Origin: a virus
Lineage: Duplodnaviria > Heunggongvirae > Uroviricota > Caudoviricetes
Reading direction: 5' to 3' (one strand)
Length of the DNA stretch: 14,602 nucleotides
Virus record (IMG/VR): IMGVR_UViG_2908567220_000007
Shown: in pieces, positions 1 to 12,963 of the stretch
How the letters are laid out: the number at the start of each line of letters is the position of its first letter
Position numbering within the stretch: the stretch's first letter is position 1
The notes under the pieces: model-generated
Database searches by the model: none
Told to the model about the DNA's origin: nothing
The model's input: only the letters and a program-made list of their open reading frames with translations
Position numbers and translations under genes: made by a program

Positions 1-303
1 TTACTTCCTGCGTTTATCCTGCTTTGTATGCCCGTGCTGAATGCCCCGCAGTGGATCTTCTTTTTTCAGGTCGATCCCCATGTCCGTTAGTGTTTTTGTG
101 GCGGCGGTTCTTATGGCACAAATCAGGTCTCTTTCCGGTTCCCGGGTTATGGTTGCCTTCCGGATGCATGCCGTTCGTCGTTCCGTTACATACTGACGCG
201 CTTCATCACTTGCCGCCTGTTTCAGTAACTCACCCCAGCGATTAGCCGCCCGTCGCCATAAACCTTTCGCTTCCAGTTCTTCCGCTTTGTCATCATGCAC
301 CAT
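1..303 (-). CDS. PerC-family-like small transcriptional regulator (paralog of 4278..4565)
   Basis: ORF track gives 1..372; the probable start is the internal Met at 301..303 (MVHDDKAEELEAKGLWRRAANRW...), which aligns with the start of the paralog at 4278..4565 (MIRDSKAEELEAKGLYRRAAARW...RRAECIRRA) and has a GGGA motif upstream. Family assignment rests on recalled PerC/Pch motifs, not a search. Stop codon is at window position 1..3. Confidence 0.55.
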   Translation of the reverse strand: MVHDDKAEELEAKGLWRRAANRWGELLKQAASDEARQYVTERRTACIRKATITREPERDLICAIRTAATKTLTDMGIDLKKEDPLRGIQHGHTKQDKRRK

Positions 304-417
304 AAGCATAATCCCATTGATACCTGTTAAATCTGAATGGTTGGTTTCTGTTCTTTTGATAATTTTCCGCATAGCTTATTGTATGACAGTACTGTCCCAC
401 AATAAGGAGTTGCACGC

Positions 418-708
418 ATGAGAATGACCAGGCACAAAAAACAGATCCTTGAACTCTACAAACCTGAGTATCGCGATTGGGTGCGGGTGGAGGCTGGAGA
501 TCCACCTTTTGATGTTCGTGGTGTTACAGTGCTGCTCTATGGTTCCGAATATCAGCGATATCACATAGAGGCAACACGAAGGACGCTAAACGCTATGGTT
601 CGTGATAAGTTGCTGGAGCGTGTGAAAGTCCGTGAGCCACGTTTTGATGTGCGTATTGGTGGCGATGGTGCGCATTGCACGGTAATCCGCTATGGCCTGG
701 TAAGGTAA
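418..708 (+). CDS. hypothetical protein
   Basis: 96-aa ORF with a strong Shine-Dalgarno (AAGGAG, about 8 nt upstream of ATG at 418); plausible codon usage; no recognisable family. Confidence 0.55.
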   Translation: MRMTRHKKQILELYKPEYRDWVRVEAGDPPFDVRGVTVLLYGSEYQRYHIEATRRTLNAMVRDKLLERVKVREPRFDVRIGGDGAHCTVIRYGLVR

Positions 709-810: not shown

Positions 811-1101
811 TTACCGCCGTAACCGCTCCGGCTTCTTCCACTGGTAAGTCTTTTTCTCGCTCTCCCGGTACATCTGCACGCGGCGACGGTAGGCCAATAA
901 CTCGAGTACCCTGGTGCGTATGTCGCGCATATCCACTCCGTTAAGCTCAATACCGTCACGGCGCATCACCTCAGCCACCACACGCGCATAGTTCTCAGCG
1001 ATAACGCTGTCCGGCTGCGTGGCCTCCTGTTTGCCTGCTGGTGGTCTGATCCCGGCAATCTGGCGAATCATTTTGAGCATTTCGGCTTCGGTCATTGTCA
1101 T
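811..1101 (-). CDS. hypothetical protein
   Basis: Track ORF is 811..1125; GGAGG lies 2 nt before the ATG at 1101 and 8 nt before the ATG at 1095, so the start is probably 1095 or 1101 (MTMTEAEMLKMIRQIAG...). Convergent with 418..708. No family recognised. Confidence 0.5.
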   Translation of the reverse strand: MTMTEAEMLKMIRQIAGIRPPAGKQEATQPDSVIAENYARVVAEVMRRDGIELNGVDMRDIRTRVLELLAYRRRVQMYRESEKKTYQWKKPERLRR

Positions 1102-1384: not shown

Positions 1385-1470
1385 ATCATCGCGGGTCCTC
1401 CTGGATGGGTACCCTTACCGCGGGGCGACGGACGCGCGGAAAAAGGCTGGTTTTTGCATTTTCATGGCGG
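1385..1470 (+). other. cos-like site copy A (cosQ-like CGGGTCCTCCTGG, cosN-like GGGCGACGGACG at 1423..1434)
   Basis: Alignable to the lambda cosQ/cosN junction and to the in-window cos at 2425; a 35-bp stretch (ccttaccgcggggcgacggacgcgcggaaaaaggct) is identical to the reverse complement of 4113..4147 (copy B). Confidence 0.5.
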
Positions 1471-1864
1471 CGGCAGCATGTGTGGTAATATATTGATAAT
1501 TAAAAGTTATTTCTGTTTTCACCTGTACAATCTTTTTTCTCCCCTGTCATTAGACCAGTTCGCAATCAATTGAAATATATAAATAAATCTGATTTTCACC
1601 TGCCAGATGGAGTTGCCAGTGTCAAATGTGAGCGGAAGCGGTGATGCTTATCACTGAATCATGCCGCATCACGATACCAGACTCCCGGTACCGCTGCGTG
1701 ATAACCCACAAGGCTGGTGGCGATGCGTTATGGTCCGTGCATTGCCATTCTCCTGGCCTGGTGGCATTATCCGGCATGAACGAGCGGTTATTCTCCGTAC
1801 TCTTAATCGTTGTTCATGGTTATTTTCTTTGTGGTAGCTGACTTCTTGATGTCCTTATCCTCCT

Positions 1865-1890
1865 GCCCCGTAATCACGGGGTATTTTTTT
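1865..1890 (+). terminator. putative rho-independent terminator
   Basis: Hairpin GCCCCGT-aatc-ACGGGGT followed by ATTTTTTT on the plus strand; no convincing upstream gene, so it may end a non-coding or short-peptide transcript. Confidence 0.4.
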
Positions 1891-2424
1891 ATCTGTGATT
1901 TGCTGTTCTTCGCTGTGTTGGTATGGGGAGTTCTGGCAATGGTTCAGGCCGTCGCTTTCCTGGTACGTGATTTTTTACGTTCATTATTGTGCTGGTGGCA
2001 GCGTCACGGTGTGTCACGACATATCACCATCACGTCACGCTGATTGCGAAAGCCAGGATTAACCAGTACCGGAACGGGTAGCCCGGTGTATTGTTACCGT
2101 CCTGCCTGCTGGTGGAGTAATTGATAACGGTTATCATCAACGGGAGGGGCGGATCAAATCCCTGCAGTCCTGGCTGTCCGGGACCGCCCGCCTACCCTTG
2201 TTCACATCGCCGCAGGTTCGAAAACTTTTTTTTTGGGAAGGTGTGCACAGACTTGATAGGTAAAACCTATCAGGTAAAGCCACGTCAAACCCGCGCCATT
2301 GCTGGCATCGTTAAAAAAACTCACTCCACCAGCAGGCTAAAAAACTGTGATTTTTCCAGCTTTTGGGGCTCAAAAAGGGCTCCCTAAAAAAACTCTCACA
2401 CTGTCGGAGGGGGCGGGAAATTTT

Positions 2425-2640
2425 CACGGGTCCTTTCCGGGATCTGAAACACCGCGGGGCGGTAGACGCGCAGGATTTCACTATTTATGAAAATTTTTCA
2501 GGGGAAAAGCGTGTCGGTACTTCTCGCGCATAACTGTTTGTTTTTATTAAAATCAACCACCAGAAACATACGACATCATAAAGCCAAAAAATCCTGTTTT
2601 TTTGGCGTTTCATGTCGGAGGTGGTTTTTGATAATAAATT
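2425..2640 (+). other. lambda-like cos site (cos1): cosQ-like 2427..2440, cosN-like GGGCGGTAGACG 2457..2468, cosB-like region downstream
   Basis: ttcacgggtcctttccgggatctgaaacaccgcg|gggcggtagacg|cgcaggatttcactatttatgaaaattttt closely matches the lambda right-end/left-end junction as I recall it (TTTACGGGTCCTTTCCGGTGATCCGACAGGTTACG|GGGCGGCGACCT|CGCGGGTTTTCGCTATTTATGAAAATTTTCC). Confidence 0.7.
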
Positions 2641-2759
2641 GGTGGATTAATGTTAATAAAAATGTTTTTACTACCTGATGGAAACAACCGGAAACGTGCC
2701 GGAGAAATTACGGCAACAGAAAGGTGAGTGACAGCCGCGCAATTATTGAACAAAACTGA

Positions 2760-2952
2760 GAAAGGATCTGATAACGTCATTTTTGGCCCAAAATGCCTAC
2801 TGTCAGATCCTTTCTTTTTTTGATGATTTTACGATTAAACAATGAGTTACAGAGAAGAAGAACGGATCTGACTTTTCCCGAAAAATTTTCATAAACAGTT
2901 AAGAATTGCGCGTACCCGTACCCCCGGCGCTTAAGGTTCCGGGAAGGACCCG
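2760..2952 (-). other. second lambda-like cos site (cos4), inverted; cosQ-like 2939..2952, divergent cosN-like around 2911..2925, cosB-like region including an inverted repeat at 2760..2821
   Basis: Minus strand reads cgggtccttcccgg...gggggtacgggtacg cgcaattcttaactgtttatgaaaatttttcgggaaaagtcagatccgttcttcttc, matching lambda cosB (TTTATGAAAATTTTCCGG...CCGTTCTTCTTCG). The inverted repeat GAAAGGATCTGA...TCAGATCCTTTC resembles the lambda inverted repeat AAAGGAAACGACAG...CTGTCGTTTCCTTTC. Confidence 0.6.
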
Positions 2953-3067
2953 CCGGAGATAGCTACCATAAGGCGTAATTAAATATCCGTGGATGTGCCA
3001 CGGAACAACCAGCTGAATACAGGTCAGCGTGATGACGGGAAATAAAGAGAATGGTTGCGAATCCTCC

Positions 3068-3092
3068 ACCTGGTGAATCTCCTGCACTACCT
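3068..3092. repeat. 25-bp direct repeat (copy 1) of the 3' end of the Nu1-like gene
   Basis: cctggtgaatctcctgcactacctg is identical at 3068..3092 and 3445..3469; the second copy encodes the C-terminus QVVQEIHQGE of the 3437..3985 ORF. Confidence 0.85.
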
Positions 3093-3436
3093 GTCATTTT
3101 TGCGCAAATACCCCTGGCATTTCTAAGCATGATCAACCTGATCATTGTTCGCGGTTTTTACGTGGCAAGGCCAGTAATTACGGGGCTTACATCAATGTTT
3201 ATTCCGCCCATCTCTGCGCAAAACAACTTAACAAACCTTAACATCACAGGCGGAACCATTGCGCAAATCTGGAGGCTTACCGCACGCACCAGCCTGATAC
3301 ATTGCCAGAATGAACGAGGTGCGACACAATGTGTGTGCATGTCTTACTCATTGAACCTCAATCAAGGCGCATCCTTAGCGGTGCGCTTTTATTTTTTTGT
3401 CGTTCCCTGCTGGTGGATGTTTTCCGGTACCGCGAA

Positions 3437-3985
3437 TTATTCCCCCTGGTGAATCTCCTGCACTACCTGCGGCGTGCTGTCGTGCCAGTCGTTAGCCTGT
3501 ATCACTCTGGTAGTAATTTGCCTGCACAGGTCATCAATAATCTGCCTGACGCGGTTTACTGCGTTCTGATTGATGCCTGCATCGTGCGCCAGAATGTCGG
3601 GGAGTTTTGCCAGTTCCTCGCTTAAGATTTTCCCAAAAATAACCAACTCCCTGCGCACATCCACGGCGGGGATAAGTTCAGCCGTTTCCTGCTCGAACTT
3701 AAGGCGCTCACGCTCAGACTGGTACCAGGCTTTACGGCTTTGTGGATCCATGTCTTCGAGTGATGCGGGGGCGGGTATATTCATGAATGCGCTGATTATA
3801 TCCGTCAGTCGGTACAGCTTTAATTTTTCATGCCCTCCGGCTGGCTGAATGTCCTTTAGCCTTTTCGCTACTGTCTGGCGGCAAACTCCCGCCAGTTCTG
3901 CGAGTTGATTGATATTAAGTTTCAGGTTTTTAAGCTCCCGATCCATTCGTCCTCCGGTAGTTTTAAATGCGTATCGTGCGCTCAT
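3437..3985 (-). CDS. Nu1-like terminase small subunit / packaging-redirection protein (N-terminal HTH)
   Basis: 182-aa ORF; N-terminal NINQLAELAGVCRQTVAKRL...KLYRLTDIISAF resembles the lambda Nu1 HTH (NKKQLADIFGASIRTIQNW...VLYDSAAVIKWY). Sits about 150-190 bp downstream of cos copy B, as Nu1 does after lambda cos. An internal Met at 3944..3946 with GGAGGA upstream is an alternative start. Confidence 0.55.
   Translation of the reverse strand: MSARYAFKTTGGRMDRELKNLKLNINQLAELAGVCRQTVAKRLKDIQPAGGHEKLKLYRLTDIISAFMNIPAPASLEDMDPQSRKAWYQSERERLKFEQETAELIPAVDVRRELVIFGKILSEELAKLPDILAHDAGINQNAVNRVRQIIDDLCRQITTRVIQANDWHDSTPQVVQEIHQGE
3445..3469. repeat. 25-bp direct repeat (copy 2), overlapping the 3' end of the Nu1-like gene
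   Basis: Exact match to 3068..3092, 377 bp apart. Confidence 0.85.
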
Positions 3986-4100
3986 CTTTCAGTGGGTTAA
4001 AAGTGTTCTGTATGTTGAACAAAAAACACCCCAAATTAACATAGTAAAAATATATTTCATTTTAATTCAACATGTTGGAAAGATGATGATGACGGATGAA
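3986..4100 (-). promoter_or_regulatory. AT-rich cosB-like / promoter region upstream of the Nu1-like gene, with inverted TGTTGAA/TTCAACA sites
   Basis: atgttgaac at 4005..4013 and ttcaacatgttg at 4059..4070 form inverted copies about 50 bp apart in an AT-rich stretch, similar in layout to R elements flanking an IHF site in lambda cosB. Confidence 0.4.
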
Positions 4101-4185
4101 AATGTAAAAATTAGCCTTTTTCCGCGCGTCCGTCGCCCCGCGGTAAGGCCACCCCTCCGGAAGGACCCGTAAAAAAAGCCGGAGT
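4100..4185 (-). other. cos-like site copy B (cosQ-like 4157..4170, cosN-like 4127..4138 on the minus strand)
   Basis: Minus strand reads tttacgggtccttccggaggggtggccttaccgcg|gggcgacggacg|cgcggaaaaaggct, matching the lambda cosQ/cosN junction and near-identical to copy A at 1391..1448. Confidence 0.55.
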
Positions 4186-4194
4186 GTTCCGGCT
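4171..4194 (-). terminator. putative rho-independent terminator after the PerC-like gene
   Basis: Minus-strand hairpin AGCCGGA-acac-TCCGGCT followed by TTTTTTT (plus-strand A-run 4171..4177). Confidence 0.5.
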
Positions 4195-4277
4195 TCGTCT
4201 GTGTATGTGCGCATATGCAGGATTTTATGTTATCCGCCCACGGGAGTGATGGTCATTTTTCAGGATAATATCCGGCA

Positions 4278-4565
4278 TCACTGGTTACCGCCAGGCTGCT
4301 TCGGGTAGTTCCGCCAGACGGATTTACCCGCGTCTTCCATCCCCATCACCGCATGAGTGCGGTTTACAGCCTCTTTCAGTGCCCCGAAGTTATCCGCCAT
4401 AACGGGTGGGCGTGCTGCCCTGCGGATGCATTCCGCGCGACGCTTTGCCACCTGTTCGCGCTCCTTATCGGTGTTCACCAGCTGCATGACCTCAGCCCAC
4501 CGCGCCGCCGCTCTCCGGTACAGGCCTTTAGCCTCCAGTTCTTCCGCTTTGCTGTCACGAATCAT
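4278..4565 (-). CDS. PerC-family-like small transcriptional regulator
   Basis: 95-aa ORF MIRDSKAEELEAKGLYRRAAARWAEVM...RRAECIRRA, paralogous to 1..303; start overlaps the stop of the upstream ORF by 4 nt. Confidence 0.55.
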   Translation of the reverse strand: MIRDSKAEELEAKGLYRRAAARWAEVMQLVNTDKEREQVAKRRAECIRRAARPPVMADNFGALKEAVNRTHAVMGMEDAGKSVWRNYPKQPGGNQ

Positions 4566-5098
4566 GCGCCTGTCTTCTCCTTTGTCGCCTGACGTTTGCG
4601 CTTTTCATTCAGTGCTGCCAGCCGCGTTTCTGCCTCCTGCTGTTCCTGTGGTGTCACTTCCCCACATGGCTGGCCTTTCAGGTCGTAACGTGTGCCACCA
4701 GCCATTAAGGCGCGGTAATAGCGCGGAGACTGCGCATAAGATGCCAGCGTCGCACGTAATGCCCCCGGCCCGAATGTCAGCCCCCTGGCGGCGATATCCT
4801 GTATCAGGTCGTCGAATATCCCCACCTTAAGCGGCTTCGGTGCTTTATGGCTGAATAAGTCAGGCCACATCTCAGTGAGGCGGTTAACGCGTCGGCGGTT
4901 TTTGCGCTGCCTTTTGGTCATATGCTGACACGGTGTCGCCCCTGCGGTCTTCTGTTTGCGGCTCTGCTGTGCGTTCTGATTATCGGGTATCACTTTATGC
5001 GCCGATGTGGTTTTATCCTGCTCTTGTGCCGCCTGCGTCGTTTTCTGCGGCGTGCCGTAAATGCCTTTCGGTTTTCGGTTAATGGTCAGCTTTGTCAT
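4562..5098 (-). CDS. ProQ/FinO-domain protein (putative RNA chaperone)
   Basis: 178 aa; PLKVGIFDDLIQDIAARG...LRATLASYAQSPRYYRAL...GTRYDLKGQPCGEVTPQEQQEAE resembles the ProQ N-terminal FinO domain (PLKIGIFQDL...LRSALRLYTSSWRYL...[23 protein letters not shown], recalled). Basic, low-complexity N-terminus. SD AGGGGA upstream. Confidence 0.7.
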   Translation of the reverse strand: MTKLTINRKPKGIYGTPQKTTQAAQEQDKTTSAHKVIPDNQNAQQSRKQKTAGATPCQHMTKRQRKNRRRVNRLTEMWPDLFSHKAPKPLKVGIFDDLIQDIAARGLTFGPGALRATLASYAQSPRYYRALMAGGTRYDLKGQPCGEVTPQEQQEAETRLAALNEKRKRQATKEKTGA

Positions 5099-5134
5099 GC
5101 CTTCCCCTGTAATTACGCTGTTCGCTGTTGTGAA

Positions 5135-5560
5135 TTAAAACGGTATGTTATCCCCGTACGGGTCATCGTGCTGGCTTGTCTGTTGTTTTGCCCTGTTCAG
5201 TGCGTCAGTGGCCTGGCCCTGTTGACCTTTTTTGCCGCCCGGTCGCGCCGTTCGCGCACTGATTACGCTGTCTGCAATAACCTGCCAGCCCTGCCGCGTT
5301 TCCCCGTTCTGGCCTGTCCACTGGCTTACCTGCATGTTACCCGCCACGCTCACCAGTTCGCCTTTCTGGTGCCTGGCCAGTGCGTCGGCCTGTCTGCCAA
5401 ACGCCAGGACGGATAACCACATCGTCGCCGTTCCGTCATCTGCCTGGCTGCACGGCAGGGGAACCGCCATACTCGCCATCGCCATTTGTGTCCCTTTGCT
5501 GGTGGTCTTTAACTGCGGGTCAGCCACCAGCCGCCCGTAAGCCGCTATCTGTGCTGTCAT
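5135..5560 (-). CDS. ssb: single-stranded DNA-binding protein (SSB-like)
   Basis: 141 aa; OB-fold-like N-terminal region (AAYGRLVADPQLKTT...GTATMWLSVLAFGRQADALARHQKGELVSVAGNMQVSQWTGQNGETRQGWQVIADSV), Gly/Gln-rich linker and a C-terminal DDPYGDNIPF resembling the canonical SSB DDDIPF tip. ATGA overlap with the upstream ORF. Confidence 0.7.
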   Translation of the reverse strand: MTAQIAAYGRLVADPQLKTTSKGTQMAMASMAVPLPCSQADDGTATMWLSVLAFGRQADALARHQKGELVSVAGNMQVSQWTGQNGETRQGWQVIADSVISARTARPGGKKGQQGQATDALNRAKQQTSQHDDPYGDNIPF

Positions 5561-6330
5561 GCTGTATGTTCTCCGTTTTTTACTGGCCCTGTCATCAGTG
5601 CGCGCTTAAGCTGCTTGTGTGAGATATTAAACAGGCAGTTCATTCTTCCCGTTCGCTTCATCCGATAACCCGATGCGACCATTGCGGCGATTAATGCGCC
5701 GTTTGTGATGTATGTCGGCTCTGTTGGTTGCCCGTCGCCCTTAGCTCTTCTCTGATTCACACGCTCAACACAATGTTTCAGGCCGTAGGATGTCGGATTT
5801 TTTCCAGGGAATGATGCAATCTTACAGTCGGTTAGGTTGTTCTCCCTTATCCAGCGTAAACAGCTCATCGCCTCCGCCATGAAGGGCGCATAATCAAGCG
5901 GGTGCTGCCATGCCTTATCACGGCTGTACAGTTCAAGTCCGTCGCGGTTAAAAAACGGGTAAGCGGCAAGAATTACCGTTACTGCGTGTTTAATTTCCAC
6001 CTCATCATTCTGTCGCTCTTTTTCTGTTCCGTACGGATAATAATCAGAACCGCCCGGATTGATGCACTGTTTACCACTGAAAGGCCATTGCTTCGCCATT
6101 TCGGGGGTTGAGTGATTACCGTCGCTCCGTTCTCGTTGTGCCTCTGTCCACTGGCTGGCGTATTCCGTAAAACTCACCGCCTTACTCTGTCGCATCCAGT
6201 GCGCAATCATGACCAGCGTTCTGGTAAGGCTCTGTATATCTCCGTGCTTCTCACACTGTCCCGCAAAGGCCTTGAGCGCTTCGCGTTCTTTGTAGTTCAT
6301 ACCCTGACGGGTCATATTTTCTTTATTCAT
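5557..6330 (-). CDS. hypothetical protein, replication-module associated
   Basis: 257-aa ORF immediately downstream of the iteron array and translationally coupled to the SSB-like gene; no family recognised by eye. Confidence 0.55.
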   Translation of the reverse strand: MNKENMTRQGMNYKEREALKAFAGQCEKHGDIQSLTRTLVMIAHWMRQSKAVSFTEYASQWTEAQRERSDGNHSTPEMAKQWPFSGKQCINPGGSDYYPYGTEKERQNDEVEIKHAVTVILAAYPFFNRDGLELYSRDKAWQHPLDYAPFMAEAMSCLRWIRENNLTDCKIASFPGKNPTSYGLKHCVERVNQRRAKGDGQPTEPTYITNGALIAAMVASGYRMKRTGRMNCLFNISHKQLKRALMTGPVKNGEHTA

Positions 6331-6511
6331 TCCCCACTACTCCCCGCTTTTGTTCCCCACTTTTTAAATTTCCCACTTGCTTCCCACCTCGTTTTTTGGG
6401 TGAGTCTAATACTTTGTTTTTCATTGTATTTTTTACTCCCCACTTTTTTGGATGTATACAGGCCGGAAAGTGGGGAATAGCGTTTCAATTTTGTTAAATT
6501 CCCCGCTATCC
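6331..6511. repeat. iteron-like repeat array (putative replication origin), left part
   Basis: Eight copies of TCCCCACT-like heptamers (CCCCACT, CCCCGCT, TCCCACT, TCCCACC) at about 6332, 6342, 6355, 6371, 6382, 6438, 6501 plus an inverted copy GTGGGGA at 6470, around an AT-rich spacer (6391..6435). Confidence 0.5.
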
Positions 6512-6596
6512 GTAACCGTCTCATTTAAACCGTCTTTCGCCTCCCTTTCCTGTTTCCGATACTAATGTCCATTTTCGCAGTAAAGGGACATTTAAG

Positions 6597-7247
6597 ATGA
6601 ATGCACGAAAAGCGGTACTGGCAGACAATCCGGAATTGATCCTGCGTGTGCTACAGCTGAGATTTGACGAGTCACTGTCGTACCCGCGCATTTCTGCGCA
6701 GACCGGTGTCAGCAAAACCGCCATTTTTTCTCTGGTGAGGCGATTTCACCAGGTATTCACTGACTGGCCTCTTTCCGGTGAATATTCCTGCGGGCAACTG
6801 GCCCGGGCTCTTTTCCCGGGGCGATACCCTTCAGCCCCGACCGTGACTCAGCCTGTGAAAGCAGAGAAACCCCGCCGGAACCGATTTTCACCGGAGTTTA
6901 AATGGAGACTGGTTCAGCAAACTCTTTTACCCGGTGCCTGTGTCGCACAAATAGCTCGAGAGAATGGAATTAACGATAACCTGCTCTTTAACTGGCGGCA
7001 TCTCTGGCGTAACGGTGGCCTGCAACCGCCCGGCGAACATGAAACATCGCTACTTCCCGTGACGTTAACTCCGGAGCCGGATAATAAAATCCCGGCACCA
7101 GTGCAGATACCTGAACAGATAAATACACTGCCAGACAGTCTGTGCTGCGAGCTGGTTCTGCCGGCCGGAACTCTCAGGCTGAAAGGTGAACTGACACCGG
7201 CGTTATTACAGACACTTATCCGCGAAATGAAAGGGAGCAGCCACTGA
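6597..7247 (+). CDS. tnpA: IS66-family accessory protein (orf1)
   Basis: 216-aa ORF, first in the IS; AAGGGA Shine-Dalgarno; ATGA overlap with the next ORF, as is typical for IS66 elements. Confidence 0.75.
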   Translation: MNARKAVLADNPELILRVLQLRFDESLSYPRISAQTGVSKTAIFSLVRRFHQVFTDWPLSGEYSCGQLARALFPGRYPSAPTVTQPVKAEKPRRNRFSPEFKWRLVQQTLLPGACVAQIARENGINDNLLFNWRHLWRNGGLQPPGEHETSLLPVTLTPEPDNKIPAPVQIPEQINTLPDSLCCELVLPAGTLRLKGELTPALLQTLIREMKGSSH

Positions 7248-7594
7248 TGATATCTCTCCCTGCCGGTTCGCGTATCTGGCTGGTTGCCGGTATCACCGAT
7301 ATGCGAAATGGCTTTAACGGCCTGGCCTCAAAAGTTCAGAACGTCCTGAAGGATGACCCGTTCTCCGGGCATCTGTTCATCTTCCGCGGACGCCGGGGTG
7401 ACCAGATAAAAGTGCTGTGGGCTGACAGTGACGGACTGTGCCTCTTCACCAAACGCCTGGAGCGGGGCCGCTTCGTCTGGCCGGTCACCCGCGATGGAAA
7501 GGTTCACCTTACTCCGGCTCAGTTGTCCATGCTTCTCGAAGGCATCGACTGGAAGCACCCGAAACGAACGGAACGCGCTGGCATCCGCATATAA
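7247..7594 (+). CDS. tnpB: IS66-family protein TnpB (orf2)
   Basis: 115-aa ORF MISLPAGSRIWLVAGITDMRNGFNGLASKVQ...LFIFRGRRGDQIKVLWAD, characteristic of IS66 orf2. Confidence 0.85.
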   Translation: MISLPAGSRIWLVAGITDMRNGFNGLASKVQNVLKDDPFSGHLFIFRGRRGDQIKVLWADSDGLCLFTKRLERGRFVWPVTRDGKVHLTPAQLSMLLEGIDWKHPKRTERAGIRI

Positions 7595-7613
7595 CCCGTT
7601 GTAAAGTGAGGAT

Positions 7614-9185
7614 ATGGACACCTCACTTGCTCATGAGAATGCCCGCCTGCGGGCACTGTTGCAGACGCAACAGGACACCATCCGCCAGATGGCGAAATAC
7701 AACCGCCTGCTCTCACAGCGGGTGGCGGCTTATGCTTCCGAAATCAACCGGCTGAAGGCGCTGGTTGCGAAACTGCAGCGCATGCAGTTCGGTAAAAGCT
7801 CAGAAAAACTTCGCGCTAAAACCGAACGGCAGATACAGGAAGCCCAGGAGCGAATCAGCGCACTTCAGGAAGAAATGGCGGAAACGCTGGATGAGCAATA
7901 TGACCCGGTACTGCCATCCGCCCTGCGCCAGTCTTCAGCCCGTAAGCCGTTACCGGCCTCACTTCCCCGTGAAACCCGGGTCATCCGGCCGGAAGAGGAA
8001 TGCTGCCCGGCCTGTGGTGGTGACCTCAGTCCTCTGGGGTGTGATGTGTCAGAGCAACTGGAGCTTATCAGCAGCGCTTTTAAGGTTATCGAAACACAAC
8101 GTCCGAAACTGGCCTGTTGCCGGTGCGACCATATCGTGCAGGCACCAGTACCTTCAAAACCCATTGCACGCAGTTATGCCGGAGCGGGGCTTCTGGCTCA
8201 TATCGTCACCGGGAAGTATGCAGACCATCTGCCGTTATACCGCCAGTCAGAAATATACCTTCGTCAGGGCGTGGAACTGAGCCGCGCCACGCTGGGGCGC
8301 TGGACCGGTGCCGTTGCTGAACTGCTGGAGCCGCTGTATGACGTGCTGCGCCAGTATGTGCTGATGCCCGGTAAAGTCCATGCGGATGATATCCCCGTTC
8401 CGGTCCAGGAGCCGGGCAGTGGTAAAACAAGAACTGCCCGGCTGTGGGTCTATGTCCGTGATGACCGTAACGCCGGTTCACAGATGCCCCCGGCGGTCTG
8501 GTTCGCGTACAGCCCGGACCGGAAAGGTATCCATCCACAGAATCACCTGGCCGGTTACAGCGGTGTGCTTCAGGCAGATGCTTACGGTGGTTACCGGGCG
8601 TTATACGAATCCGGCAGAATAACGGAAGCCGCGTGTATGGCCCATGCCCGGAGAAAAATCCACGATGTGCATGCAAGAGTGCCAACCGACATCACCACGG
8701 AAGCCCTGCAGCGTATCGGTGAACTGTATGTCATCGAGGCAGAAGTCCGGGGATGTTCAGCAGAACAGCGTCTGGCAGCAAGAAAAGCCAGAGCGGCTCC
8801 ACTGATGCAGTCACTGTATGACTGGATACAGGAACAGATGAAAACACTGTCGCGTCACTCGGATACGGCAAAAGCGTTCGCATACCTGCTGAAACAGTGG
8901 GAGGCCCTGAACGTGTACTGCAGTAATGGCTGGGTGGAAATCGACAACAACATCGCAGAGAACGCCTTACGGGGAGTGGCCGTAGGCCGGAAAAACTGGC
9001 TCTTCGCGGGTTCCGACAGCGGTGGCGAACATGCGGCGGTGTTGTACTCGCTGATCGGCACATGCCGTCTGAACAATGTGGAACCAGAAAAATGGCTGCG
9101 TTACGTCATTGAGCATATCCAGGATTGGCCGGCAAACCGGGTACGCGATCTGTTGCCCTGGAAAGTTGATCTGACCTCTCAGTAA
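7614..9185 (+). CDS. tnpC: IS66-family transposase (orf3)
   Basis: 523-aa ORF with N-terminal coiled-coil/leucine-zipper-like region, CCPACGG...CCRC zinc-finger-like motif and a long catalytic core, as in IS66 transposases; GAGG Shine-Dalgarno. Confidence 0.9.
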
Positions 9186-9215
9186 ATATCAATACGGTTC
9201 TGGCGAGCCGCTTAC

Positions 9216-9243
9216 CGCTATCCCCACTTTTATCCCCCACTTT
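9216..9243. repeat. iteron-like repeat array, right part (separated from the left part by the IS66 insertion)
   Basis: cgctatccccacttttatcccccactttt carries two further CCCCACT copies immediately after the right target duplication and just 3' of the helicase stop at 9244. Confidence 0.5.
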
Positions 9244-10650
9244 TTACAGTGGATGCACGTCATTGCCGTCGATAGTGATCACGCCGTCTTTTTCCAGCTT
9301 GTACAGCCAGCGCCGGAAGTGCTTCATCTCATACCCCAGCTTTTTCATATCGTCACGTAGCAGGGCGATAGTGCACGGCTCTTTGTGTGCTGTCCGTGTT
9401 CTTATGCACTGCCATAATGCGGCGTGATTCTCCGTCTTGTTCCCGGCCTCCTCGATGCGTTCCAGTTCAGCAGGGGCGCGGGGAACGTCAATCACCACCA
9501 TGGACACAATCTCTTCGCCATCTGTATCGGTGAACACCTCCACGCTTTTAAGGTCGTATGCGCTCTCTTTTGGCTCCTCTGCGTCCTTCATCTTCGTACA
9601 TGCCGCCACCAGTGCTGTAACGTCTGAATTTTCCCGGCCGATTCGGTACTCTGCATCAAGCGCGGCACGGAATGCGCTGGAACCACGCGCCCCCTTTGTT
9701 TCATCCTTGCCGGAATGGTGAACCACCAGCACCGTGGCCCCTGTAGCCTGCTTTATCGCGTCACACCCCTGGATAAATGCGCCCATATCACGGGAATCAT
9801 TTTCATCATTCCCACCAAAGCAACGGGCCAGCGTGTCGATCACAATCAGCCGCACATTTTCGCCCGTTCTGCTCTTAACAAGTCCGGCAGTCCTGATAAC
9901 CTGCTCCACATAGTCAGGCGATGCGGGAAAGACAGGCGCGTTAACGATGCACAAATCTGTAACCTCTTTTCCGTATGTTATCTCCCACGCCTTAACGCGG
10001 CGTTTTACGCCCATACTGCCTTCGCCAGCGATATAGATAACCGCGCCCTTACTTACCCTGCGGCCTCCCCATGCCATACCTGTGGCAACATGGCACGACC
10101 AGGAAATAGCCAGGAACGATTTATAAGAACCGCTGGCCCCGTAGGTGCTGCATAATGACTCAGCCGGAATAAGCCCCTTAATTACGTAGCTTTGCTGCGC
10201 GTCGAATCCCTCAGAACCCCATGAGATGGGAAGTGTGATTTTTCGCTTTCCACCATTCATGACCAGACTTTCCCCGCGTTCCCAGGTTTCTTTAAGCCGC
10301 GGTAGTTGCTCGCTCCAGTCCTCCAGCAGTTCGAAATTCTCTGAAAGTAACCGTGCTTCCTGGACACCTGCGATCGCCAGTTTGGTGGCAATGGTCAGCA
10401 TCTGCATATCGTCCAGGTTTCCGGCGCGTATGACCTTTGCTCTGTATCGTCCTTCATCAACAATCTGTAAATTGTCCAGTTCGCTTAACTGATAACGGCC
10501 CAGGTAAACCGGAGGGATGGGATCGCCTGCTTTTTTGGCCTGTGCAATCATGTAATGTTCTGCAAAGGAGTGAGCATTATCACCCGCAAAAATAACCGCC
10601 TCAGTGTGTTTATCTTTCGGTAACAGTTTTACGTTCGGTGCCAGTTTCAT
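9244..10650 (-). CDS. RepA-like P-loop replicative helicase (RecA-fold ATPase)
   Basis: 468 aa; P-loop-like GASGSYKS, Walker B-like RLIVIDTL, and VLVVHHSGK motif reminiscent of RSF1010 RepA-type helicases; C-terminal winged-helix-like tail; AGAGGT Shine-Dalgarno; followed directly by the iteron array. Confidence 0.75.
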   Translation of the reverse strand: MKLAPNVKLLPKDKHTEAVIFAGDNAHSFAEHYMIAQAKKAGDPIPPVYLGRYQLSELDNLQIVDEGRYRAKVIRAGNLDDMQMLTIATKLAIAGVQEARLLSENFELLEDWSEQLPRLKETWERGESLVMNGGKRKITLPISWGSEGFDAQQSYVIKGLIPAESLCSTYGASGSYKSFLAISWSCHVATGMAWGGRRVSKGAVIYIAGEGSMGVKRRVKAWEITYGKEVTDLCIVNAPVFPASPDYVEQVIRTAGLVKSRTGENVRLIVIDTLARCFGGNDENDSRDMGAFIQGCDAIKQATGATVLVVHHSGKDETKGARGSSAFRAALDAEYRIGRENSDVTALVAACTKMKDAEEPKESAYDLKSVEVFTDTDGEEIVSMVVIDVPRAPAELERIEEAGNKTENHAALWQCIRTRTAHKEPCTIALLRDDMKKLGYEMKHFRRWLYKLEKDGVITIDGNDVHPL

Positions 10651-10946
10651 TTTTTACCTCTGGATGCGCTGAGCATGCTTTTTATTTTCTTAATATTTTC
10701 CCGTGCTTTTTCCCTGCTGGTGGGCTTACTGCGTGTTGCGTTCTGTACCAGAGAAAAATCACGCCGGAACTGATAAACAGGCATCACGCAGTCATAGCCG
10801 TACCCATCACGGCGGTAAGTAACGCACCGTCCCGCCACGCTTTTAATCGTTACCGTGCCGCCGTAGTTATCCCGGAAAATATCGCCGGGGTGGATTTCAG
10901 GCCGAGCGGGGCCGCTGGCAGTAAAGCCAGAATTTTTCTGTTTCAT
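10647..10946 (-). CDS. hypothetical protein
   Basis: 99-aa ORF whose stop overlaps the helicase start by 4 nt (translational coupling); no family recognised. Confidence 0.5.
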   Translation of the reverse strand: MKQKNSGFTASGPARPEIHPGDIFRDNYGGTVTIKSVAGRCVTYRRDGYGYDCVMPVYQFRRDFSLVQNATRSKPTSREKARENIKKIKSMLSASRGKK

Positions 10947-10951
10947 GGTTT

Positions 10952-11185
10952 TTATTTCCCGGTGTGTTGTTCTTTATATCTGTCGTGCAAAAGATCTATT
11001 TCTTGTAGTTCCATTATTACCGGCTCAAGAAGCGTTATTAACGCCGTCGCAATATTGCTGTTGCGTTTATCTCTTTCATTATCGCCAAGCGTTCCAAGCC
11101 ATAAGCGCAATATTTCAAGCATGTTTTCACTGTAAGCAAGAGCACGGTATGCACGGTCTACTGTGTCATTGTAAATATCACACAT
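10952..11185 (-). CDS. hypothetical protein
   Basis: 77-aa ORF with GAGGA Shine-Dalgarno 8 nt upstream; 8-nt overlap with the upstream ORF. Confidence 0.5.
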   Translation of the reverse strand: MCDIYNDTVDRAYRALAYSENMLEILRLWLGTLGDNERDKRNSNIATALITLLEPVIMELQEIDLLHDRYKEQHTGK

Positions 11186-11411
11186 GGCTTACATCCTCAG
11201 GGAATTTTCTTCTGTAACGCGCCTCTGCCACATATTCAGCATAGTCCGACGCAATAACGAGAATATCGCTGCCTGTTCCTGAATGCTCAGTGGTTCCAAT
11301 TAAAAAACATGCGGCCTTTATCAGGTCATTAACAACCAGCAACGCATCACCCGCATCATCCGATACGCCATCAAATTCCTGTTTCAGGGCATTAAAACGA
11401 TCATCACGCAT
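11178..11411 (-). CDS. hypothetical protein (possibly the C-terminal part of a frameshifted gene)
   Basis: 77-aa ORF whose ATG lies 2 nt after a 9-nt poly-G tract (plus-strand poly-C 11414..11422); one extra G would fuse it in frame to the 11384..11644 ORF. Confidence 0.45.
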   Translation of the reverse strand: MRDDRFNALKQEFDGVSDDAGDALLVVNDLIKAACFLIGTTEHSGTGSDILVIASDYAEYVAEARYRRKFPEDVSHV

Positions 11412-11644
11412 AACCCCCCCCCATTTTCACAATCAGCAATCAGGATAGCCCTGGCCTCATTCAGTGCCATATCAGCGGTAAGCTGTGCGTAGGCCAGCGA
11501 ATGCGGGATTATTGCCCCTGTATATTCCGGCTCTCTGGTAATGTGTTTTTCCGCGGTTGCTGCCGTGCATGAAATATCAATCAGCGCATCAATCAGTGTT
11601 TTGATTGCTTCGGCGACTGCGTCCGGACGGGTGTTATTGCACAT
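11384..11644 (-). CDS. hypothetical protein (possibly the N-terminal part of a frameshifted gene)
   Basis: 86-aa ORF with GGGGG Shine-Dalgarno; reads through the poly-G tract as GGG and stops 9 codons later. Confidence 0.45.
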   Translation of the reverse strand: MCNNTRPDAVAEAIKTLIDALIDISCTAATAEKHITREPEYTGAIIPHSLAYAQLTADMALNEARAILIADCENGGGLCVMIVLMP

Positions 11645-12831: not shown

Positions 12832-12899
12832 TATGTTTTACCTCGTTAATCCGGCGTATTCCGGTGATAAATACGGTAAAACAGGGCAGGGCGGGAAAA

Positions 12900-12935
12900 A
12901 CAGTACCCACCGTTTTAAAACGGTACCCACTGTTT
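12900..12935. promoter_or_regulatory. perfect 16-bp palindrome ACCGTTTTAAAACGGT flanked by direct repeats GTACCCAC, upstream of alpA
   Basis: Palindrome at 12909..12924; GTACCCAC at 12903..12910 and 12923..12930, 20 bp apart. Confidence 0.4.
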
Positions 12936-12963
12936 TTTATCTCATTGATTACGCTTTTCTTTC

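Follow-up and report, generated by a model that had tools for sequence, protein, structure and literature searches.

The stretch of DNA analyzed here (IMG/VR virus record IMGVR_UViG_2908567220_000007; 14,602 nucleotides in length, hereafter the window) is a phage satellite from Escherichia coli, namely a phage-inducible chromosomal island (PICI) of the Gram-negative type that belongs to the EcCICFT073 family. Its genes for an integrase, AlpA, an Icd-like product, a DUF4222 protein, an AAA_25 replication protein, SSB, ProQ and PerC are all encoded on the minus strand, and the co-oriented int/alpA/replication module together with a pair of attachment (att) sites and an incomplete complement of virion genes is characteristic of PICIs. 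At the int-distal end, where EcCICFT073 has its packaging module, the island harbors a 2.8-kb cluster of phage-type cohesive-end (cos) sites interspersed with intact and broken genes for terminase small subunits (TerS). Comparison with a near-identical locus of strain STEC313 (L001, 99.4% identity), in which the island is inserted between yejO and tRNA-Pro and bounded by a single pair of 17-bp att repeats located 13.3 kb apart at tRNA-Pro, placed the start of the window 1.3 kb inside the left island end and gave an island size of 13.3 kb, or roughly 16.1 kb with an IS66-family insertion. Since only one att pair is present and the array lies well inside it, the cos cluster is internal to a single element, and two satellites in tandem were rejected as a simple reading on the same ground.

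The sequence CGGGTCCT is present in the window in exactly four copies, starting at positions 1392 and 2427 on the plus strand and at positions 2952 and 4169 on the minus strand (copy A, cos1, cos4 and copy B, respectively), against a chance expectation of 0.35, and four copies were reached in none of 200 shuffles. These positions and the + + - - arrangement are exactly those given in a first-pass annotation, made from the sequence alone, and the occurrence of these lambda-type cosQ-cosN sites is far above chance. In an alignment with lambda whose ends had been joined, cosQ, a G-rich 12-mer at the position of cosN and then CGCG are seen in each of the four sites, with a cosQ-to-cosN spacing of 28-30 nt as counted on the sequences (30 nt in lambda). 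The 12-mer is GGGCGACGGACG in both A (1423-1434) and B (4138-4127), GGGCGGTAGACG in cos1 (2457-2468) and GGGTACGGGTAC in cos4 (about 2923-2912); the latter two were placed by alignment alone and differ from those of lambda and phage 21. The repeat finder recovered both the inverted A/B pair (1392-1465 and 4096-4169; 74 nt, 89% complementary) and the facing cos1/cos4 pair (2427-2502 and 2877-2952; 76 nt, 74% complementary). The 35 identical base pairs previously noted between A and B reflect a genuine shared run but understate it, the longest identical run being about 36 nt within the 74-nt repeat, and the array contains four different lambda-type cosB rather than the two types initially proposed. 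Judged by their sequences, the four sites are genuine homologues of the lambda family of cos with differing cosB. They also differ in their position relative to terS: B lies directly upstream of such a gene, cos1 does so in relatives (the gene is deleted here), A is followed only by a 50-bp stub, and cos4 adjoins the 3' end of a convergent terS, with no terS following it.

Copy A (1392-1656, plus strand) consists of cosQ (1392-1405), cosN (1423-1434), cosB (about 1435-1606) and the terS stub (1607-1656), and has 88-91% identity with the cos of three phages, cdtI, Tritos and HannyBb. Position 1 of the deposited cdtI genome corresponds to window position 1423, the first base of GGGCGACGGACG, which speaks for this 12-mer being a genuine cohesive end. 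The start of the cdtI terS, at position 185, falls at window position 1607 and the homology stops at position 234 (window 1656), leaving the 50 bp of a DUF1441-type terS. A cos with about 89% identity to A is borne by Qin-like prophages of numerous E. coli genomes, where DUF1441 terS, terL (terminase large subunit, TerL) and portal genes come after it. As in B, the cosB of A is homologous to phage cosB, of a phage type for which R boxes are undefined. No phage match was found for the adjoining segment 1657-2118.

Copy B (4011-4169, minus strand) comprises cosQ (4169-4156), cosN (4138-4127) and cosB (4126-4011), and together with its downstream terS is about 71% identical to, and colinear with, the corresponding region of phages PhiR40_1, PhiR55_1 and mEp460-like phages. 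This terS (3437-3946, minus strand; probable start at 3946, with a possible start of the open reading frame (ORF) at 3985) is intact and encodes a DUF1441-family TerS homologue (Pfam DUF1441, E = 5e-35; PHROG 141 'terminase small subunit', E = 2e-55), which is 64% identical over its full length to the product of the PhiR40_1 gene located directly upstream of terL (annotated as 'Fels-1 prophage protein') and only 35% identical to the TerS of cdtI. A further 29-nt piece at 3065-3093 on the minus strand, 97% identical to 3441-3469 (direct repeat D13) and corresponding in tblastn to residues 173-182, is a copy of the DUF1441 3' end and marks a second, lost copy of the gene; no phage homology was detected for 2953-3440, including the 340 bp between the two 3'-end copies. 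Directly before the cosQ of B, the sequence reads as a terminator-like hairpin GCCGGAACACTCCGGC with a T-run (4171-4195, minus strand) that ends the PerC operon. A comparable hairpin and T-run directly precede cos1 of EcCICFT073 (L006:2505-2528), which suggests that, by position, B corresponds to the functional cos1 of that prototype. Packaging redirection based on Rpp was rejected, an rpp gene having been sought in the island and none found: tblastn of RppA (Rpp family, 139-154 aa) against the window returned nothing below E = 0.1, RppA and the DUF1441 protein show no similarity (E = 5.5), and the latter has no match to RppC or any other PDB chain.

The inner pair consists of cos1 (2420-2662, plus strand; cosQ 2427-2440, cosN 2457-2468), with a cosB of the phage 21 type, and cos4 (2750-2952, minus strand; cosQ 2952-2939, cosN about 2923-2912), with R boxes GATCCGTTCTTCTTC, AAAGGATCTGACAG and CAGATCCTTTCTC. 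The former has 74-77% identity across 236-243 bp with cos of phage 21, PhiR5_1 and CFT073 phage 4, and in alignment with the annotated cos of phage 21 it matches at R3/I1/R2/R1, keeping the R3, R2 and R1 boxes and the IHF-like (integration host factor) site TTTATGAAAATTTTT. The latter is a lambda variant, 74% identical to the cos of SerU-LTIIb and more weakly similar to that of Gifsy-1, and its three lambda-like R boxes are common to SerU-LTIIb and to a second PICI, that of an O104:H21 strain. Between the two sites lies the remnant of a Nu1-type terS (2652-2731, plus strand), composed of the start region with a mutated start codon and the last 62 nt, about 499 bp having been lost internally. 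The intact gene, encoding 194-200 aa, is present between cos1 and cos4 in the related loci L004 (4261-4845), L005 (3928-4530), L017 and L018. The L004 protein matches lambda TerS in PDB entry 6hn7_B (E = 1e-37) and has 59% identity with the phage-21-type TerS of CFT073 phage 4; the stretch DPRTIERWQ, which corresponds to the DNA-binding region of lambda TerS, is identical in these two proteins. The region described at first as largely gene-free thus contains an intact DUF1441 TerS gene, a deleted Nu1-type terS and two terS stubs, the first two of which had been missed. Neither a tRNA nor a structured RNA was found in the DNA so described, and a promoter scan gave no signal above background.

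A further element, at 2119-2298 on the plus strand and with no adjoining genes, which the first-pass annotation overlooked, is probably, from its homologies, a fifth cos, of the HK97/phi467 type. It corresponds (78-81% identity) to the full stretch that separates the HNH endonuclease gene from terS in phi467 and about 10 related phages, and carries the GATCAAATC...GACCGCC motif that borders the end of the HK97 genome, its identity to HK97 itself being low. The element is conserved in all array-bearing relatives.

The packaging module of EcCICFT073 was described by Fillol-Salom et al. (2018/2019) and reviewed by Murialdo and Feiss (2022). In the CFT073 island, cos1 lies on the plus strand directly upstream of rppA and cos2 on the minus strand directly downstream, facing it, followed by c1504. 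This arrangement recurs in the EcCICFT073-like PICI of O104:H21, where a Nu1-type terS replaces rppA; the minus-strand cos of that PICI shares with the cos4 of the window both the cosB and the junction with the terS 3' end. The convergent cos1/cos4 layout is therefore a conserved PICI module and no local oddity. The outer pair repeats this pattern, with the PerC operon terminator, B, the DUF1441 terS and the facing A in succession, and a c1504-like gene beyond A. The most fitting description of the cluster is two cos-terS-cos cassettes, the inner enclosed by the outer, with the HK97-type element in addition. The initial view that a satellite needs a single cos, so that four are unexpected, does not agree with EcCICFT073, which possesses two functional cos sites (PMC6092414, PMC6739421), convergent around rppA; both enable plasmid transfer by phages, and transfer of the island is abolished only by deletion of both (PMC6092414). 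Two putative cos sites have likewise been reported for SaPIbov4, and TerS-encoding PICIs of E. coli have been noted but left uncharacterized (PMC6092414).

The array was compared among seven array-bearing loci, namely the window and six relatives. Its chromosomal locations number four or more (yejO/tRNA-Pro, near clpS, thiM-rcnR and near yifB), and a match to part of the region is present in 1174 of 5426 E. coli genomes, in most cases an A-type or cos1-type cos located beside prophage terS. All seven loci contain the HK97-like element and both inner-pair cosB (those of cos1 and cos4), and all but L015 contain the cosB of B. Of the two terS genes, the Nu1 type has stayed intact in four, with deletions in three and a frameshift in one, and the DUF1441 type has stayed intact in five, with deletions in three; the terS deletions leave the adjacent cos sites intact. 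In two loci, L005 (2836-3010) and L017, the A slot is taken by another cos allele, which shares about 72% identity with phages 1720a-02 and CP-1639, so that cos slots are polymorphic.

In locus L016 (E. coli A36, NZ_CP028739, positions 2980-6600), the array has undergone two inversions, one nested in the other, and each of the four lambda-type sites is a chimera that combines, reciprocally, parts of two sites of the window: the flank of B is joined to the body of A, the body of A to the cosB of B, the flank of cos1 to the body of cos4, and the body of cos4 to the cosB of cos1. These nested inversions and chimeric sites indicate that inverted cos cores recombine with each other. Within the inverted cosQ-cosN cores, crossover took place at cosQ or past the I-site and not at cosN, which points to homologous recombination rather than to terminase cutting and re-ligation; inversion through terminase cutting at the identical inverted cosN of A and B followed by re-ligation was rejected for this reason. 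The scars of recombination suspected in the first-pass annotation are supported, by the truncated and deleted terS beside the sites and by a relative with chimeric cos formed by crossovers in the cores.

The homologies of the individual sites show repeated uptake of cos-terS modules from different temperate phages by the island. With moderate confidence, the 2.8-kb region is interpreted as a packaging module with five cos, each from a different lineage of E. coli temperate phages, i.e. as a multi-helper array, and the retained sites would most likely enable several types of helper, each with its own terminase, to package the concatemeric island. The earlier suggestion that the sites are recognized by different helper terminases fits this interpretation, since each site matches the cos of a different phage lineage, and cos types matching the array are also present in resident prophages of E. 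coli genomes. According to the proposed mechanism, a helper phage would induce excision of the island and its replication into concatemers, and whichever helper is present would find its own cosB in the array; its TerS would bind there, its TerL would nick the adjacent cosN, and packaging would start at that point and stop at the same site about three island units further on, when the capsid is full. Three units of 13.3 or about 16.1 kb would amount to about 40 or about 48 kb, both in the headful range of lambda. Copy B with the DUF1441-type TerS of the island would represent an island-specific route analogous to that of TerS in pathogenicity islands of Staphylococcus aureus (SaPIs), and in relatives cos1 with the Nu1-type TerS would provide a second one. 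The facing orientation would have been inherited from the conserved PICI layout, in which two cos converge on terS or rpp, and since altered by recombination between inverted cos cores; orientation would be irrelevant for packaging from a concatemer. Our inference is that cutting and packaging take place at more than a single site. Bidirectional in situ packaging, as in lateral transduction, was set aside, as cos phages are reported not to perform it (PMC12829572).

A bolder form of this interpretation is offered only tentatively. It regards the array as a cos 'library' that spans lambda-type (TerS/TerL) and HK97-type (HNH-dependent) packaging, with at least three sites working and several unrelated phage families as helpers, and the inverted cores as recombination hot spots that invert segments and shuffle cosN and cosB into new specificities. 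If true, it would explain the presence of multiple cos in some PICIs, a question raised in the literature.

Several observations weigh against a multi-helper array. Copy A with its dead terS stub and cos1 with its deleted terS have the look of decaying modules. As the 12-mers of cos1 and cos4 differ from those of the closest phages, cutting by the TerL of those helpers is not assured. In a comparison of per-segment identity with four diverged relatives, the cos modules were no better conserved than the spacers (for the window versus L005 and L018, about 84% for cos1 and 88-93% for spacers), and hence gave no signal of purifying selection. At least 80% of the array is found in only 19 of 5426 complete E. 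coli genomes. Deletion of cos2 in EcCICFT073 raised transfer (PMC6092414), which means that an extra cos can be costly, and the IS66-family insertion in the replication region may signify that this copy of the island is no longer mobile. The main and serious rival explanation builds on part of this evidence: the sites would be relics of module replacement, acquired from prophages or other PICIs by recombination at cos cores, with only one of them (probably B with its TerS), or none in this copy with its IS insertion, functional and the rest decaying neutrally. We regard this as possible, though not probable. In addition to the level conservation of modules and spacers, it can draw on the terS stub after A, the 499-bp deletion in the Nu1-type terS, the 29-nt stub of the second DUF1441 gene, the frameshifted terS in L016, the other allele in the A slot of L005 and L017, and the chimeric cos sites, which mark the cores as recombination points. 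Decay of this kind is harder to reconcile with the repeated loss of terS by deletion across the seven loci, in which the adjacent cos were spared, with the junction of the terS 3' end and the minus-strand cos, kept at 82% identity between distantly related PICIs, or with the orphan cos2 of EcCICFT073, which works on a plasmid (PMC6092414).

Two other explanations are little supported. That the extra cos act as decoys, titrating or misdirecting the helper terminase on an amplified island and thereby lowering phage yield, had been proposed in the first-pass annotation and found no specific support; we consider it improbable. PICIs of the EcCICFT073 family do interfere with helper packaging (PMC6739421), the high copy number of the island after induction is published for the same family, and the sites carry authentic phage-type cosB elements; but the known interference in this family is protein-based (Rpp), no dedicated feature of the array points to interference, and any cos on a concatemer that is bound and cut by the terminase of the helper would lead to packaging, which makes a decoy role inseparable from packaging. 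Still more remote is an invertible switch, in which the 2.7-kb segment or the inner cassette would frequently invert through the cores and swap the cosB and terS downstream of the PerC operon, and with them the packaging specificity. Both inversions do occur naturally, as L016 with its reciprocal chimeric cos demonstrates, and the orientation of the cassette relative to the backbone differs between the window and the PICIs of O104:H21 and CFT073. One orientation is nevertheless common to six of the seven array-bearing loci, the inverted locus is 5-15% diverged, so that inversion must be rare and old, no invertase gene lies nearby, and the crossover points vary by junction, as in occasional homologous recombination.

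Taken as a multi-helper array, the module can be compared with several known systems. It shares with EcCICFT073 the genes int, alpA, rep and perC with a c1504-like last gene (814-1095, minus strand; 71% protein identity), the hairpin before the first cosQ, a convergent lambda-type cos pair around a small DNA-binding packaging gene, and cosQ and cosN close to those of helper phages. It differs in that the slot between the cos is filled by TerS homologues (DUF1441, and Nu1 in relatives) and not by Rpp, in having five cos sites instead of two, and in its cosB, which are here of phage type (21, lambda-variant, cdtI and PhiR40), whereas the cosB of the functional cos1 of EcCICFT073 is non-phage and read by Rpp-TerS. 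As in P4 with P2, and in SaPIbov5 and SaPIbov4 with cos phages, a copy of the helper cos would let the helper terminase package the satellite; P4, SaPIbov5 and SaPIbov4 are each matched to one helper type, unlike the five different specificities, in both orientations, proposed here. Relative to the cos of lambda and phage 21 (cosQ, cosN, I2, R3, I1, R2, R1), cos1 and cos4 keep the order, the spacing, the R boxes and the IHF-like sites, but their 12-mers differ from the GGGCGGCGACCT of lambda, cos4 is not followed by terS, and the terS after cos1 is deleted in the window. The full-length island TerS homologue beside its own packaging site (B with the DUF1441 gene) resembles the SaPI TerS (TerS_S), which redirects the helper TerL to the island; in contrast to the latter, it belongs to a cos and not a pac system and to an unrelated TerS family, its role is predicted, and no Ppi-like partner was identified.

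Outside the cos cluster, a second PerC gene (1-372, minus strand) and a small ORF (418-708, plus strand) are located beyond it. This second PerC gene may leave room for an old fusion of islands, in which case the extra PerC and the further 1.3 kb up to the att site could be the remains of a second island. The replication module (5568-11571) is unlike that of the otherwise 99%-identical STEC313 island, with an AAA_25 protein here and DUF927 there, which reflects modular exchange within the PICI family. Within 6340-9246 of the replication region lies the IS66-family element, with ORFs at 6597-7247, 7247-7594 and 7614-9185; its ends were sought and could not be defined. Iteron-like repeats TTTT(G/A)(T/C)(T/C)CCCCACTTTTT at 6348, 6431 and 9228 surround the element, which is possibly inserted inside the origin of the island. 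In the alpA-int region, a near-perfect 42-bp palindrome (12896-12937; AAAAACAGTACCCACCGTTTT / AAAACGGTACCCACTGTTTTT) is possibly a regulatory or recombination site.

Multiple cos in a PICI, satellites with the cos of their helper and PICI-encoded TerS in E. coli (noted, unstudied) are already known. Apparently new are the number and diversity of the sites, the nested convergent architecture and the presence of TerS of two families in the Rpp slot, as well as the direct evidence that cos cores mediate inversions and shuffling of cosN and cosB; full-text literature searches returned no account of the five-site diversity, the nested layout, the two-family TerS slot or core-mediated shuffling. The only mechanism worked out in E. 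coli involves Rpp and one non-phage cosB, and its discoverers left open the reason for two different cos. The array provides a concrete hypothesis, in which the extra sites would be helper-type cos from different phage lineages, alongside island TerS of two families. The locus also shows cos cores to be points of recombination and inversion through which the packaging modules of satellites are reshaped. As PICIs carry virulence and defence genes between E. coli strains, the phages able to mobilize an island set its spread.

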